From Patescibacteria group bacterium (lineage in GTDB: Bacteria; Patescibacteriota; Patescibacteriia; UBA9934), in assembly GCA_041666145.1 (NCBI GenBank), contig JBAYHK010000004.1, positions 20,542 through 84,541 of the forward strand: a stretch of 64,000 nt of DNA, given 5' to 3'. The notes under the pieces were generated by a model, which was given only the letters and a program-made list of their open reading frames with translations, searched no databases and had not been told where the DNA came from. The position numbers and the translations under genes were made by a program. Shown here in pieces: positions 4,732-46,462 of the stretch (position 1 is its first letter; the number at the start of each line of letters is the position of its first letter).

Positions 4732-6543
4732 TTAGAAGAGCGTACATGCCGTCGACTGAGGAGTGCCATTACAACAATATGGAGAACTTGCAGTTGTCCC
4801 ACAACTACCACCGTTACTATCTGGGCCTTCCCCTGGAACAAAACAATTCTGATACTCGTTAAGAACTCCTTCGTTCGCCGCAACGCCATACATGAATGAC
4901 AAAGGAGGAACCGCCACTGAATCAGACGCAAGGAATGTTCCATGCTCAATCGTCACCATTGTTTTTACTGGAATTTGTGAATCAGTTAATACTTCTTCAT
5001 TTGCATCAGTCAACCAAACTGTTCTAAAGGCATACCAAAGTTCATGATCGTCGTTAGAATTGACCTCTTTATTTGAAAGCTCGATATTCGAAGAGTTCAC
5101 GCTCGATGTGTCTAATATTGAATCAAATGTAATCTGAATGGATTGGTCTAACGCAATATTTTCACTCAAAATTTCCGGAGCAATGCTTTCAATCGCTGGA
5201 GCGTCAAGATTTATATTATTTGTAGTAGTAAAACTCCAAATGTAATCATCGCCTGCACTGACGACACCATCACCATTTCCATCCATAGAGTTTCCTGACG
5301 TATCAACAATTCCATCGTAAGGATATATCGAAGCCGTCGGGTCTGTTGACGACGTTGGAGTAGCGGAAGCAATAGACGCTGTCACTAATTGACCACCAGG
5401 AAGGCAGTAAATCGTCTCACCACATGAGTTCGTTCCACAAGCGTCAGTAGTTGTGAATGTAACAGTTCGATATCCATTTCCAATTGTATATTCGCCTGCG
5501 GTTGGTGCAGACACCGACGCACCAACAACCTGAATATTCGAAAAACCACTTTCAGCTTCACGAATTCCAGAGGCGGAAGTTGGATCGACTGCCTCGCTAA
5601 ATGTCATCTGAACAGTAATGTTCCTATCTTTTGTCGAATTTGCCGATGGGGCAATGTTTTCAACTGTAGGTGGAGTAATATCGACTGTTGTTCCGGTTGT
5701 GAAGTACCAAAGGTATCCTCCGTCATCGATCATGGTCGCTCCTGTTGCGTCTTGAATTGAATCGCTCAAAAAGACTGCATACGTCACATCAGCAGTCGCA
5801 GAGCCAAGATATTCAGCTGGATCAAAAGAAAATGTTTTTAAATCATCAGTAAACGACACCGCCACATTCGTCAACGCGGAAGAATCACCAGTATCACGAA
5901 CATAAATTTTTACGTTTTCTGTATTTATTGCCGTTGCGACAGTATCGTCAGATACGTCTTCTGGAGTTCCGTTTGTATTGTATCCGTCAATAAACGATGA
6001 AATGTCCATTGCATCTCTAAACGTCACAAAAATCCGTGTATTTCGAGAAACGTCGGTGGCATTACGTGCTGGATAATGGTCTCTAATTGCGCCAGAGCCA
6101 AGCGAATTTGAAAGCCTTTCAACAGAAATACTACCCGAGCCATCTCCACTTCCGCTCCCCCCTGTTGCACCTCCGAGCGTATTCAAAATAAACGTCGCAA
6201 TCGCATAAGCAGAAAGTGTTATCACCAAACCAACAACTGCATTAATTAAGATCGCCTTTGCTTTCTCAACCCTCTTGCCATCTCCTCCTGCCGTCATCCA
6301 AATTGCACCAGCGTAAACAAAAAGGATCAAACAAATCACGCCAAGCAAACTCAATGCAACATTAATAACACGACCGATAATTGTCAGTAAATCTGTGTCT
6401 GCAAAACCGCCACCAGTTCCAACGGTGGCAAGATTTGCATCAGCGGCAAACGCGAAAAATGGAACAGCGATCAAGAACCCAATTGCAACAAAGAAAGAAC
6501 CGCGTTTGAACGCTCGAAAAAAAGAAGGGTTGAACACATGCAT
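4732..6543 (-). CDS. Surface protein paralog (~600 aa) with signal peptide plus TrbC/VirB2-like membrane module, GSGSGDGSGS linker and Big_5/SbsA-like Ig domains. Track ORF extends to 6561; start at MHVFNPSFF (6543) preferred by alignment to the paralog
   Basis: ORF 4732..6561. Two hydrophobic helices INVALSLLGVICLILFVYAGAIWM / LINAVVGLVITLSAYAIATFIL are separated by GGDGKRVEKAKA, matching VirB2/TrbC topology. ITPPTVENIAP...MTFSEAVD is Ig-like. Confidence 0.8.
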   Translation of the reverse strand: MHVFNPSFFRAFKRGSFFVAIGFLIAVPFFAFAADANLATVGTGGGFADTDLLTIIGRVINVALSLLGVICLILFVYAGAIWMTAGGDGKRVEKAKAILINAVVGLVITLSAYAIATFILNTLGGATGGSGSGDGSGSISVERLSNSLGSGAIRDHYPARNATDVSRNTRIFVTFRDAMDISSFIDGYNTNGTPEDVSDDTVATAINTENVKIYVRDTGDSSALTNVAVSFTDDLKTFSFDPAEYLGSATADVTYAVFLSDSIQDATGATMIDDGGYLWYFTTGTTVDITPPTVENIAPSANSTKDRNITVQMTFSEAVDPTSASGIREAESGFSNIQVVGASVSAPTAGEYTIGNGYRTVTFTTTDACGTNSCGETIYCLPGGQLVTASIASATPTSSTDPTASIYPYDGIVDTSGNSMDGNGDGVVSAGDDYIWSFTTTNNINLDAPAIESIAPEILSENIALDQSIQITFDSILDTSSVNSSNIELSNKEVNSNDDHELWYAFRTVWLTDANEEVLTDSQIPVKTMVTIEHGTFLASDSVAVPPLSFMYGVAANEGVLNEYQNCFVPGEGPDSNGGSCGTTASSPYCCNGTPQSTACTLF

Positions 6544-6577
6544 GGCAGAAGTATACCGCAAATGTGTTCAACCCTTT

Positions 6578-10665: not shown

Positions 10666-10900
10666 GAAGAACCTCTGTCGAAAAGTGCACCACGCTAGTG
10701 GCGTCTCTGTTGTTGACGAATGCAGCCCGCTACTTTAGCGAGGCCGCATGTGTAGTCCAGTTCAGTTGGGAAAGATCCCAGCCGTTCCAGGCTTCAATTC
10801 ACGAAAATGTTAAACATTCGCGCAAGTTGAAGCCTGAAACAGGAGGGGTTAGGCTATCAGATTTAGGAAGTTCTGTCAAGAAGAAACCGAATTTTAGAAA

Positions 10901-10943: not shown

Positions 10944-12278
10944 TTAAACTTCGTCTTCTGGAATGTTCAATCGCTTCCCAATAATCGCCACAACCTTTTC
11001 AACGTCAACGATTTCTTGCGCTCCAGACTCCATGTCTCGAATGATAATGGTACCGTCCAAAACTTCTTTTTGCCCAAGAATCACTGCGATTGGAGCCTTA
11101 ATTTTGTCTGCAATTTCGAGCTGCGCCTTGAGCGTTCCCTTTCCGAACGCCTCCCCCACTGCAATGCGTCCCTCACGGAACCTCTCATATACCGCCAATC
11201 CCTTTCGGCGGGCCGCCTCTCCAAGCTGACAGAAGAACACGTCAACTTTTGCACGACGTGGAGGCACAGATCCCGCGGCCTTCATTGCCATAACTAGTCG
11301 CTCAACTCCCAGTGCCGCACCGATTGCACTCGTATTTTCACGACCACCAAGCATAGGAATCAACCCATCGTATCGTCCACCACCGCCAAGAGCGAGACCT
11401 TCAAGTTCTGGAGTTCCTGCATTCGCAAGCGTCAATTCAAACGTGGTTTTTGTGTAGTAATCAAGACCACGAACTAAATATGGATTCAATGCATACGGAA
11501 CTTCTGTCTCATCCAAATACTCAAGCACCTTCATGAAATGCTGCTTCGAAACCTCGTCAAGATAGTCAAAAATCTGTGGAGCATCGGCCTTAAGCTCTTC
11601 CATCCCAGGCTCCTTTGAGTCCAGCAAACGAAGTGGATTCTTAATCAAGCGCTTTTGATCTGTCTCTGAAAGCTTCTTCTTATGCTGCTTGAAATACTTT
11701 ACAAGTTCAGCAACATAAGCCTTACGAGAAATCGGGGTGCCTAAAGAGTTTATTTGCACAACAACGTCCAATCCAAGATCTCGGCAAAAACGTTGGCTCA
11801 TGAGAATGACTTGCGCGTCAATAACAGGGTCGTCTGAACCAATCGCTTCAAGACCCCACTGCCAAAACTGACGATACCTTCCAGCTTGTGGACGCTCATG
11901 ACGAAAGAATGGCTCGAAATACCACATCTTCACCGGCTGAGACTGGTTCACCATTCCGTGTTCAATATATGCTCGAGCAACCTGAGCCGTTCCCTCTGGT
12001 CGCAAAGTCATTTTTACTCCGCCCTGGTCAACAAACGTAAACATCTCCTTTTCAACAATATCAGTATCTTTCCCAACTGATCGCTCAAAAAGAACGGTTT
12101 GTTCCAAGGCTGGCATACGAATACGACCAAATCCATAGGTCCGCGCCATTGAACGCGCCAAAAACTCAATCTTGTCCCAAGCAGACTGTTCATCTGGCAA
12201 AATGTCACGAAATCCTCGAAGTGCCTCTGGAGTCTTTGACTTTTTCTTTGCCTCTACCACTGGTTTTTCTTCTGCCAT
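10944..12278 (-). CDS. hisS: Histidyl-tRNA synthetase
   Basis: 444 aa; class II motifs; RDMESG..., GGGRYDGL. Confidence 0.9.
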   Translation of the reverse strand: MAEEKPVVEAKKKSKTPEALRGFRDILPDEQSAWDKIEFLARSMARTYGFGRIRMPALEQTVLFERSVGKDTDIVEKEMFTFVDQGGVKMTLRPEGTAQVARAYIEHGMVNQSQPVKMWYFEPFFRHERPQAGRYRQFWQWGLEAIGSDDPVIDAQVILMSQRFCRDLGLDVVVQINSLGTPISRKAYVAELVKYFKQHKKKLSETDQKRLIKNPLRLLDSKEPGMEELKADAPQIFDYLDEVSKQHFMKVLEYLDETEVPYALNPYLVRGLDYYTKTTFELTLANAGTPELEGLALGGGGRYDGLIPMLGGRENTSAIGAALGVERLVMAMKAAGSVPPRRAKVDVFFCQLGEAARRKGLAVYERFREGRIAVGEAFGKGTLKAQLEIADKIKAPIAVILGQKEVLDGTIIIRDMESGAQEIVDVEKVVAIIGKRLNIPEDEV

Positions 12279-12954: not shown

Positions 12955-13058
12955 ACTCCCCCGTCACCTTGCGAGCCTTTTGCATTTTTGCTATCCTCCC
13001 ATCGATTCTTGAAAGAAGAAAGGTAGCGAATAAGAACGAGAAGTGTGTAAAAACTATT

Positions 13059-13157
13059 AAGTTTGTCGGATGCTAGGAGCCGCGAGGACCGAAGCGAGCC
13101 GTACTCAAATGTACGGCGAGCGAGGACCACAGCGGCGACAACGCAGCCGACAAACTT
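13059..13157 (+). other. About 100-nt extended nested hairpin immediately 5' of tRNA-Met (outer stem AAGTTTGTCGG / CCGACAAACTT)
   Basis: 11-bp perfect outer inverted repeat enclosing GC-rich nested pairings (GCCGCG/GCGGC, CGAGCCGTAC/GTACGGCGAGCG) and direct GAGGACC repeats. Confidence 0.4.
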
Positions 13158-13172
13158 GGATAGTTTTTACTA

Positions 13173-13248
13173 GGCTGGGTAGCTCAGTTGGTAGAGCACA
13201 GGACTCATAAGCCTGTTGTCGCGGGTTCGATCCCCGCCCCAGCTACCA
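13173..13248 (+). tRNA. tRNA-Met (anticodon CAU; could be initiator, elongator or tRNA-Ile2 precursor)
   Basis: 76 nt cloverleaf GGCUGGG-UA-GCUCAGUUGGUAGAGC-A-CAGGA-CUCAUAA-GCCUG-UUGUC-GCGGGUUCGAUCCCCGC-CCCAGCU-A-CCA; one A31:G39 mismatch. Confidence 0.8.
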
Positions 13249-16800: not shown

Positions 16801-16877
16801 TGGTGGATGTTGGTGGGTTCGAACCACCGACCTCTGTCGTGTGAGGACAGCGCTCTAACCAGCTGAGCTAAACATCC
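16801..16877 (-). tRNA. tRNA-Val (anticodon CAC)
   Basis: 77-nt cloverleaf on minus strand: GGAUGUU-UA-GCUC-AGCUGGUUA-GAGC-G-CUGUC-CUCACAC-GACAG-AGGUC-GGUGGUUCGAACCCACC-AACAUCC-A-CCA. Confidence 0.85.
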
Positions 16878-16915
16878 AGGAAAACGTACCCAAGTTTGTT
16901 CAGCTTCGTTGCTCA

Positions 16916-16950
16916 CTCATAGGTCCTATAAGTCTTATAGGACCTATGAG
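16916..16950. repeat. 35-bp perfect palindrome CTCATAGGTCCTATAAG-T-CTTATAGGACCTATGAG (founding copy of a repeat family)
   Basis: Perfect inverted repeat; related copies at 22148..22176, 60568..60600 and a variant at 47603..47636. Confidence 0.85.
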
Positions 16951-17000
16951 CTACTCGCCCCTAGAATCCGACCAAAGAAAATATCTGAAACGAGAAGTGT

Positions 17001-17127
17001 AGAGAACGCTTTTTATTTCGGCCAGTTTCGATGAACCAGGAGGAAAGTTCGTGAAACGTACTTCTTGGTACGTTGAACGAATTTCCGACGCAGTGAGTCG
17101 AAAATGGACAAATAAAAAGCGTTCTCT
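17001..17127. ncRNA. Candidate structured RNA / repeat element, copy A (~127 nt). An 18-bp closing helix encloses the conserved core TTTCGATGAACCAGGAGGAAAGTTCGTGAAACGTAC...GTACGTTGAACGAATTTCCGACGCAGTGAGTCGAAA
   Basis: Closing helix AGAGAACGCTTTTTATTT (17001..17018) pairs perfectly with AAATAAAAAGCGTTCTCT (17110..17127). The core is about 85 percent identical to copy B at 46123..46247, whose closing helix has a completely different sequence. Confidence 0.4.
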
Positions 17128-17212
17128 GGTGCCGCGGGAGGGACTCGAACCCTCAATCCCTTACGAGAAACGGATTTTGAGTCCGTCGCGTATACCATTC
17201 CGCCACCGCGGC
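17127..17212 (-). tRNA. tRNA-Leu (anticodon CAA), class II with long variable arm
   Basis: 86 nt: GCCGCGG-UG-GCGGAAUGGUAUACGC-GACGGA-CUCAAAA-UCCGUU-UCUCGUAAGGGAUUGA-GGGUUCGAGUCCCUC-CCGCGGC-A-CCA. Confidence 0.8.
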
Positions 17213-23474: not shown

Positions 23475-23800
23475 AAAATAAAATTCGCCCGTACAACATC
23501 ACGACCAAATAGTCATGAAGCTGTACGGGCGAATATTCTTCGCGGTGCCACCGTACTTTGATCTCATTCTTCGCAATAACGGGCGAAACCCGCGAGGTTC
23601 TACTGTCCCTCCGTAGCTCCGAAGGAGTAAACGGGGAGGATTTCTTCCTCGAGCTTGGCGGTGTTCAAGTCGCCTCAAACGCTCGTGATAGCGACTATAG
23701 CACAAAGATTCTTTGGCGCAAATTCGAACGCGTGGCATGAAAGAAAGATGTTTGTTGCGAGAAAAATCGAACGAATCAATAGTTCGATCTGGCTTTTTCT
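23475..23800 (-). promoter_or_regulatory. T-box riboswitch-like leader of asnS (T-box motif plus terminator / antiterminator)
   Basis: Minus-strand transcript contains GUACGGUGGCACCGCGAAG (match to T-box AGGGUGGNACCGCG core), then terminator AUUCGCCCGUAC...GUACGGGCGAAU plus UUUAUUUU ending at the ATG. Upstream are hairpins and AGUAGAACC (possible AAC specifier). Confidence 0.5.
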
Positions 23801-37459: not shown

Positions 37460-37781
37460 AGTCTTTCGTTCATACGGCTAGCCGTAGAGGAACGTGAGGA
37501 ATTAAGGCTTTTCAACGAAAAAACCAGAAGCATCGATCGTGAATACCACGTTTCGATAACTTCTAGCCCAAAACAACACACGAACAGATGAAGTTGTTAG
37601 GGTTTTTGATGAGTTGAAAAGGGTTCTCCAAACTTCGCACGAATCGACGAGAAGGTTTTCCACTGAAGCCTGAGCCTAAGCGGATCTTTCTTCTCGGTTC
37701 GTTTTGAAGCGTTTGTGCAGTGGGAACTGCGATGAAGCAATCTCATTTGAGCTTACCTCGTCGCAGTTCTCACTACGATAA

Positions 37782-45913: not shown

Positions 45914-46122
45914 AATGTGAATAGTGTAAAGGGAAAGGCAGGAAAATGGAACGCGCGTTCAGGAATCAATGAAAGTTTTGAAAACGACACGTCATAACAA
46001 GCTACGGATCCCTCCTATCGTCGGGATGGGAAAAGAAAAAGATTCACCAAGTTAGAAAAAACAAAACGCCGTCATTTGCGACTCATTTCGATGAACAAGA
46101 CAAATTCTCAGAATCGATGGAA

Positions 46123-46247
46123 ACAAAACGTCATTATTCGAGGCTAATTTCAACGAACGAGGAGGAAAGTTCGTGAGACGTACCCAACGTACGTTGAACG
46201 AATTTCCGACAAGTGAGTTGAAAGTAGACCGAATAATGACGTTTTGT
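46123..46247. ncRNA. Candidate structured RNA / repeat element, copy B (~125 nt), core homologous to 17001..17127
   Basis: Closing helix ACAAAACGTCATTATTCG (46123..46140) pairs perfectly with CGAATAATGACGTTTTGT (46230..46247). Core is ...TTTCAACGAACGAGGAGGAAAGTTCGTGAGACGTACCCAACGTACGTTGAACGAATTTCCGACAAGTGAGTTGAAA. Confidence 0.4.
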
Positions 46248-46424
46248 GTAACCGACGGAAGTCGTGAAATGGCCCGAAAGCCATATGTCTGCACAAGGCA
46301 GCGCTGAGTCCGCGTGTGCGTCTGTTAAGAAGCCGTTCGCACGGTGATCACACCGTTTGCTGCCTGGACTCTTTCACGAATGAATTAGGCAAATCACGAA
46401 ACCGTCGGTCACCATCATCGTAAC

Positions 46425-46452
46425 ATAAAACCGCGAAAAAGATTCGCGGTTT
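46425..46452 (-). terminator. ndk terminator (bidirectional-looking)
   Basis: ACCGCGAA-AAAGA-TTCGCGGT with flanking A/T tracts. Confidence 0.6.
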
Positions 46453-46462
46453 TATGAGTGAA

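Follow-up and report, generated by a model that had tools for sequence, protein, structure and literature searches.

A probable new family of ERIC/RPE-like mobile structured repeats in Uhrbacteria-like Patescibacteria

A stretch of 64,000 nt of Patescibacteria DNA, referred to here as the window, carries a 127-nt hairpin element at the 3' end of a tRNA-Leu gene (copy A, type 1, 17001..17127, + strand), which raises the question of whether it is an RNA gene of the host or a mobile repeat. Copy A is full length, as judged by its closing helix, its fold and its covariance model score. The perfect 18-bp closing inverted repeat AGAGAACGCTTTTTATTT / AAATAAAAAGCGTTCTCT reported in the first-pass annotation was found at 17001-18/17110-27, around a core of 91 nt; by chance, about 2e-4 perfect inverted repeats of 18 bp are expected per window. 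The sequence folds into a single, near-continuous hairpin (-61.6 kcal/mol, z = -9). Its top strand is the + strand of the window, antisense to the flanking tRNA genes, and this strand is favoured over the - strand both in fold energy (-61.6 vs -52.0 kcal/mol) and in model score (139.8 vs 60.2 bits). The element does abut the 3' end of tRNA-Leu(caa) (17127-17212, - strand), base 17127 being common to the helix and the CCA end. Its other side is occupied by a decayed type-2 element (16878..17000, - strand), which constitutes the leader of tRNA-Val(cac) (16801-16877, - strand) and was recognised by alignment, an inverted repeat and a weak model match. The centre of this decayed element is replaced by a perfect 17-bp palindrome at 16916-16950, and the 3' part (CAACGAAGCTGAACAAACTTGGGTACGTTTT) can be aligned to the tRNA-Met leader element of the window and to the tRNA-Val leader of a related locus, L041 (sampled loci are designated by L and a number).

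A second full-length copy of 125 nt (copy B, 46123..46247, + strand) lies between ndk and murA. It is closed by a different and still perfectly paired 18-bp helix (46123-40/46230-47), as had been claimed, folds as one near-continuous hairpin (-60.8 kcal/mol, z = -10.9) and scores 124.3 bits. In both copies the + strand is more stable than the - strand by 8-10 kcal/mol. Two details of the earlier comparison need to be corrected. The identity of the cores, given as about 85%, was measured at 80% (73/91), and the closing helices, described as entirely different, are identical at 9/18 positions; both derive from a consensus close to GAGGACTTTCTCATTTG, as do the outer stems of all copies. An AGGAGG motif is present in the core of both window copies, but it is specific to their subfamily and not conserved family-wide, other subfamilies having ATCGAGGAAAT, GACGATGACG and other sequences at this position. 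Directly upstream of copy B we found a partial 5' half-copy, missed previously, which comprises the outer arm and the lower-left stem (TTTCGATGAAC; ~46060..46122, + strand; alignment, with a motif match at 46080-46094). A comparable arrangement of half-copy and full copy occurs at L011:1110-1287, and two copies have a 5' half-copy directly before them. Copies A and B do not resemble intrinsic terminators, there being no terminator-like call at either and no T-runs in their 3' flanks.

The surroundings of copy B show further features of their own. The content of the ndk-murA interval (window 45914-46462; L031:6700-10000; L033:9019-10000; L036:7773-10000) differs in every relative examined, with 1-2 unrelated hypothetical genes in the relatives and noncoding elements only in the window, and the interval is a local variation hotspot. 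Beside copy B lies a structured noncoding block of ~175 nt (46252..46428), which matches L031:8036-8212 at 88% identity; the MurA of that genome is 87% identical. A compensatory change (AUGGC/GCCAU to AUGAC/GUCAU) is seen in one hairpin of the block, which has no Rfam match at E<=10, and a bidirectional terminator hairpin is found by it at 46424-46456. The block is a candidate small RNA of either strand. That it might be a pseudogene remnant was rejected, as tblastn against the ORFs of relatives was empty; it is conserved noncoding DNA. In L031 the block is kept and the element itself is absent. The leucyl-tRNA synthetase region (window 49777-52636, - strand) is called as two products, one of 684 aa without Pfam match and then one of 265 aa in which tRNA-synt_1 and Anticodon_1 domains were recognised; in relatives LeuRS is a single protein of 757-951 aa, and the window LeuRS may be split or unusual.

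Homologues were sought by exact-word scans and then with a covariance model (R1) built from eight copies. Relatives with the gene order of the window were obtained via MurA, Der and LytR homologues, and the related-genome sample consists of ~20-kb loci, some of them picked for carrying the element or tRNAs. The core-motif search and the model uncovered a dispersed family: at least 24 homologous copies were detected by the covariance model in the window and five related Patescibacteria/Uhrbacteria genomes, located in the window, the MAG CALRGY01 (L001-L004), L011, L037, L041, L042 and L044. A core 20-mer occurs four times in one GTDB genome, that of Candidatus Uhrbacteria MAG CALRGY01 (L001-L004), and an 18-mer gave 21 metagenome matches, of which one, contig L011 with two copies, is genuine. 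The remaining 20/21 were chance matches in coding DNA, and a scan of viral contigs returned chance matches only. With the covariance model, L011 was found to hold six copies within 11 kb, L003 and L004 yielded extra copies, and copies were also recovered from four loci syntenic to the window (L037, L041, L042 and L044). Searches of plasmids, phages and E. coli with blastn gave no match to the element. At gathering thresholds only tRNAs pass in an Rfam scan of the whole window, and in E-value mode around copies A and B the best hit was a plant miRNA model (25 bits vs a 90-bit threshold), no family matching either copy. Literature searches on CPR/Patescibacteria repeats or MITEs found nothing relevant, and the family is previously undescribed in the sources searched.

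The copies differ considerably in sequence and size. A divergent type-2 member, a 124-nt hairpin (13047..13170, + strand; -68.3 kcal/mol, z = -10.5), ends 2 nt before the 5' end of tRNA-Met(cat) (13173-13248, + strand) and scores 41.9 bits (E = 1.5e-7) on the + strand and 17.1 bits on the - strand. The type-2 subfamily comprises the leaders of tRNA-Met in the window and of tRNA-Val in L041. Short forms of 70 nt lack the upper hairpin (L004:5526, L011:7718), and forms of 163-181 nt have added hairpins (L004:6615, L011:1444). Pairwise identity among copies ranges from 45 to 91%, with subfamilies common to several genomes. The family is shown by these data to be multi-copy and old. Two other interpretations of the core and arms were rejected. 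A small protein gene, suggested by AGGAGG and a GTG ORF, does not fit, since copies A and B are out of frame with each other owing to an indel of one base in the apical loop, the GTG start is GCG in L002, and no reading frame is open in more than 7/20 copies. Insertion of the core into unrelated pre-existing hairpins, or the use of the arms as variable 'guides', is contradicted by the single consensus that the outer arms share.

Covariation was analysed on an alignment of 19 copies. RNAalifold independently predicted the same hairpin, with 46 pairs, 32/46 of which show compensatory double changes. Paired cells amounted to 94.1%, vs 75.8% in column shuffles (0/500 reached the observed value), and controls with slid partners gave 33-47%; the eight-copy alignment set shows the same picture. 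The argument from covariation, first made from two copies, holds and is much stronger here, and the additional copies do not lack compensatory pairing. In the minimum-energy folds of the individual copies there are 64 G·U pairs vs 4 A·C 1x1 mismatches, and the top strand is the more stable one in 19/20 copies. Judging from the gene calls as we read them, about 12 copies are sense and 9 antisense to their flanking genes, and the top-strand preference extends to antisense copies (copy A, L003:6943, L004:6615, L037:8042, L011:6758). Oppositely oriented copies in one locus each keep the G·U pairs on their own top strand, which excludes a mutational or replication-linked strand bias as the source of the G·U excess. 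Selection on host transcripts alone is unlikely, as the top strand gives the better fold even where a copy is antisense. From the compensatory changes and the one-strand G·U pairs it follows that a single-stranded fold is under selection, and the fold of one defined strand is shown to be maintained in either orientation relative to the host genes. DNA energy parameters also favour the top (+) strand, and hence the preference fits RNA and single-stranded DNA alike.

Sequence conservation adds to this picture. Hardly any variation is seen in several of the G·A mismatches or in the apical CGUAC-loop-GUACG stem, and identity between two orthologous copies (L037:482 and L042:1898) is 91% vs 51% for the intergenic flank upstream of them. 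Copy A and the copy at the same site in L037 (L037:8042) differ at 29% of positions, with 13 compensated pairs and one broken pair; this could reflect compensatory evolution in situ or replacement by another family member. A separate structure was noticed in the Asp/Asn-tRNA synthetase leader, where a long hairpin (AAGTACGGTGGCACCGCGA...GCCCGTACAGC...; window 23478-23560, - strand; L037:608-700; L042:2024-2116) is 94% conserved between L037 and L042, compared with the 51% measured for the flank that precedes their element; a role as regulatory leader RNA is possible.

A dedicated family of functional noncoding RNAs, close to the view of the first-pass annotation, would account for much of this. 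Its copies would be genes and not parasites, made from a strong stable-RNA promoter or one of their own and freed by RNase P at the downstream tRNA, tmRNA or mirror-image tRNA, and they would act in cis on leader processing or stability, or in trans by protein binding. The strong strand-specific covariation, the invariant G·A mismatches and apical stem, and the higher conservation of orthologous copies than of their flank argue for it, as do two features described below, the repeated placement 0-4 nt before tRNA-like structures that share the strand of the element and the 5' flank motif with its TATnnn-like box, a putative promoter. The distribution of the copies argues against it. The element is missing from close relatives, both at the same sites and across ~64 kb around murA in three of them (MurA 73-87% identical), where no copies were found. 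Copies in either orientation separate unrelated protein genes, one even lies within pth, and truncated, decayed and tandem half-copies exist. Essential RNA genes seldom vary like this, and a scan for sigma-70 promoters revealed no site upstream of copy A. We consider a dedicated RNA gene family unlikely.

The comparison of orthologous sites illustrates this variation. At the tRNA-Leu/tRNA-Val junction, the spacer is 1 nt in L042 and L044, whereas in the window, L037 and L041 a full element abuts the CCA end of tRNA-Leu. L039 has at this site a 28-nt mini-hairpin, TAGAACGTTCC-AGCCAT-GGGACGTTCTA, corresponding to the outer stem only and representing either a deletion remnant or a precursor state. 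This mini-hairpin (L039:8246-8278) has the same T·G wobble as L011:10764, and the palindrome at window 16916-16950 is maybe similar to it. Upstream of tRNA-Met there is a type-2 copy in the window, a canonical copy 4 nt away in L044, and no element in L037, L039, L041 and L042. The gap between the lytR stop and the der start holds a copy in L037 alone. In the same locus, a 129-nt copy (L037:11413-11541) is inserted in frame at the 5' end of pth (11394-12086), where it contributes 43 codons, none of them a stop, before the IVGLGNPG motif of Pth. Because of this in-frame element the L037 pth call measures 230 aa vs 186-193 aa elsewhere; the copy is missing in the window, L039 and L040. The rpsU-yqeY gap carries copies in opposite orientations in L041 and CALRGY01 and none in the window, and in L004 two successive intercistronic gaps are filled exactly by elements. 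We also noted that the tRNA-Leu-element-tRNA-Val block (window 16801-17212; L037:7961-8254; L041:3208-3647) is inverted relative to lytR in L037 and L041, its orientation agreeing in the window, L039, L042 and L044, and that tRNA-Met lies in reverse orientation in L041. Short-range inversion of tRNA blocks seems to occur frequently in this lineage.

The opposition of functional RNA and transposon remnant on which the first-pass annotation rested thus fails, since the family is dispersed, occupies polymorphic sites, varies in size, includes decayed copies and has inserted into pth. It shows the behaviour of a mobile repeat, mobile on an evolutionary timescale. Against reading it as a mobile repeat, the copies within a genome are quite diverged, unlike those of a recent MITE burst, and the conservation at orthologous sites could reflect host function instead of selfishness.

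Many copies are located at the ends of stable RNAs. Distances of 0-4 nt were found to tRNA-Met (reached by two independent types), tRNA-Asn, tRNA-Asp, tRNA-Val, tmRNA and the 3' end of tRNA-Leu, and some copies lie 6-25 nt upstream of start codons. This closeness to start codons and tRNAs suggests that copies may be co-transcribed with their neighbours. The placement at tRNA and tmRNA ends may be due to targeting or to survivorship, the latter being possible because a Leu/Val spacer of 1 nt offers no alternative viable site. The 12-mer AACGAGAAGTGT, which had been linked to tRNA leaders, occurs exactly twice in the window, at 16989..17000 and, as an exact repeat, at 13035..13046 (both + strand), each time directly 5' of a family member (copy A and the type-2 tRNA-Met leader element, respectively). 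It is not tied to tRNA leaders as such and instead forms part of a recurrent 5' flank motif: GAGA is found within 16 nt upstream in 8/24 copies vs a background of 4.6% (P ~7e-6), these eight including both 12-mer-bearing copies of the window. By eye, the fuller flank pattern is [AC][CT]GAGA, and in several flanks a box resembling TATnnn or AATAAA precedes it by 8-12 nt and, judged from sequence, could be a putative weak promoter. Other near-perfect intergenic hairpins of 50-95 nt, unrelated to the family, were seen in the window at 52750-52815, 6525-6576, 10786-10838, 37718-37775, 59419-59515 and 63356-63447; one of them is 15 nt upstream of tRNA-Ser, and some, situated between A-runs and T-runs, resemble bidirectional terminators.

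How might such an element move? Filled and empty sites at pth and tRNA-Met, when compared, fit simple insertion. The flanks of the 24 copies contain no consistent target-site duplication or direct repeat, and duplication of a TA target is not shared consistently by the copies. The window and the sampled loci yielded no gene for a transposase, reverse transcriptase or recombinase, and the window contains no solo element ends that could flank a larger IS.

In MITEs the terminal inverted repeats are conserved and the target site, often TA, is duplicated. As a classical MITE, the element would be an internally deleted derivative of an IS with a DDE transposase, mobilised via its terminal inverted repeats. 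It does share with Correia/NEMIS, RUP and Nezha the character of a small, non-autonomous, dispersed repeat with inverted-repeat arms and insertion polymorphism; it measures ~127 bp, and TA is present at some ends. However, its termini evolve fastest. The outermost 12 bp are the most variable and not the most conserved part, columns 2-13 having 4-6 pair types each, and the conserved part is sub-terminal (CATTTG...TTTCGATGA). No conserved terminal repeat sequence was found, and neither an evident target duplication nor a parent IS was seen in the copies, the window or the sampled loci. The one-strand G·U asymmetry is likewise unexpected for a substrate of double-stranded DNA. An origin as a classical MITE is, in our view, highly improbable.

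A single-stranded DNA hairpin, moved by an HUH/Y1 enzyme (IS200/IS605 or REP-RAYT-like) or an attC-like tyrosine recombinase encoded elsewhere, would explain the strand asymmetry in another way, the top-strand fold with its extrahelical and mismatched bases serving as enzyme substrate. The strand-specific fold is kept whatever the orientation of host genes, DNA energy parameters favour the top strand too, and target duplication is lacking, as for IS200/IS605. In addition, the mismatches and bulges of the lower stem are conserved and the terminal structure is variable, ranging between a 5-nt loop and a branched form, which recalls attC. REP/BIME-RAYT and attC resemble the element in that a strand-specific, mismatched hairpin matters over primary sequence and terminal structure is variable. 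REP sequences are 20-40 bp long with GTAG or CGTC heads, and attC sites have R''/R' cores and form cassette arrays next to intI. The element, in contrast, is 127 nt long without a conserved tetranucleotide head or GTAG/CGTC tag, and there is no Y1 transposase in the annotated loci nor any gene for an enzyme of these types in ~250 kb of sampled DNA. Its ends (AGAGAAC/GTTCTCT, ACAAAAC/GTTTTGT, TAGGAC/GTCCTA) do not fit the attC core RYYYAAC / GTTRRRY, and copies are situated among housekeeping operons in both orientations and not in cassette arrays. Their orientation relative to the gene-rich, GC-skewed strand is also inconsistent between the window and L037. Movement as single-stranded DNA is a rather improbable explanation.

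The reading we favour, with a probability of roughly 60%, is that the element represents a new family of ERIC/RPE-like mobile structured interspersed repeats in Uhrbacteria-like Patescibacteria, whose top-strand fold is selected. Such an element would spread with the help of some trans-acting machinery, and the target of selection would be the top strand in folded, single-stranded form, most likely as RNA. This strand would be transcribed together with its neighbours or from a weak promoter lying in the 5' flank motif. Copies sit in the few places where the compact genome tolerates them, namely in tRNA and tmRNA leaders, at the Leu/Val junction, in intercistronic gaps and, once, in pth. Upstream of a tRNA or tmRNA, a copy would become a 5' leader hairpin released by RNase P cleavage; elsewhere it would be a stable intercistronic hairpin, able, like ERIC and REP, to affect how RNA is processed or how stable it is. 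A bolder proposal, which we regard as a long shot, is that the element is a mobile hairpin RNA coupled to tRNA processing itself, inserted or retained on its own strand at the 5' boundary of tRNA-like structures, with RNase P releasing a discrete and abundant top-strand RNA of ~130 nt. The structures at which it is placed would include tRNAs and tmRNA as well as the mirror image of tRNA-Leu, and the released RNA could be a new class of trans-acting RNA in CPR bacteria or the transposition intermediate itself.

CPR/Patescibacteria genomes, of ~1 Mb, are very compact and generally thought to be repeat-poor. With several copies per 10-20 kb in some lineages and none in close relatives, a family of mobile structured repeats would be a useful marker of genome dynamics among these organisms, which are uncultured. 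It also affects annotation, as the L037 pth call carries 43 element-derived residues. To our knowledge, how ERIC/RPE-type elements spread has been unresolved for decades; selection on one strand together with placement at tRNA and tmRNA ends makes the present family a concrete system for studying this. The family further allows testing of whether such hairpins become domesticated as processing or stability signals.

Placement beside tRNA genes recalls retrotransposons. According to PMC6101501, Ty3 and the Dictyostelium TRE elements target the upstream regions of tRNA genes, and the pile-up immediately upstream of these genes, as safe havens in gene-dense genomes, is a likeness to the element described here. 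Those are autonomous retroelements guided by Pol III factors, however, whereas the element is a 127-nt bacterial hairpin for which targeting is inseparable from survivorship. The Rickettsia palindromic elements (RPE), a class described in PMC3184786, are palindromic repeats of 105-146 bp in a reduced genome. They can insert in frame in protein genes, as reportedly detailed by Ogata in work of 2000. The present family shares in-frame insertion in a single case, the 129-nt copy in pth of L037, and differs in that only this one was found among ~25 copies, that no frame is generally open and that there is no sequence relation.

ERIC (enterobacterial repetitive intergenic consensus) belongs to another host phylum and has no sequence similarity to the element, which had no blastn match in 5,426 complete E. 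coli genomes; the TA flanks of ERIC are not seen in the element either. We know of no description for ERIC of an association with tRNA or tmRNA ends or of an orientation-independent one-strand asymmetry. ERIC RNA hairpins can affect mRNA processing, and the size variants and conserved RNA structure of ERIC are said to have been treated by Wilson and Sharp in 2006. In both families shorter forms arise by internal deletion and longer ones by internal insertion, and both are without a known dedicated transposase. Like ERIC, whose size and class are given in PMC3184786, the element is an imperfect palindrome of ~127 nt dispersed in intergenic regions, with indel variants and compensatory pairing.
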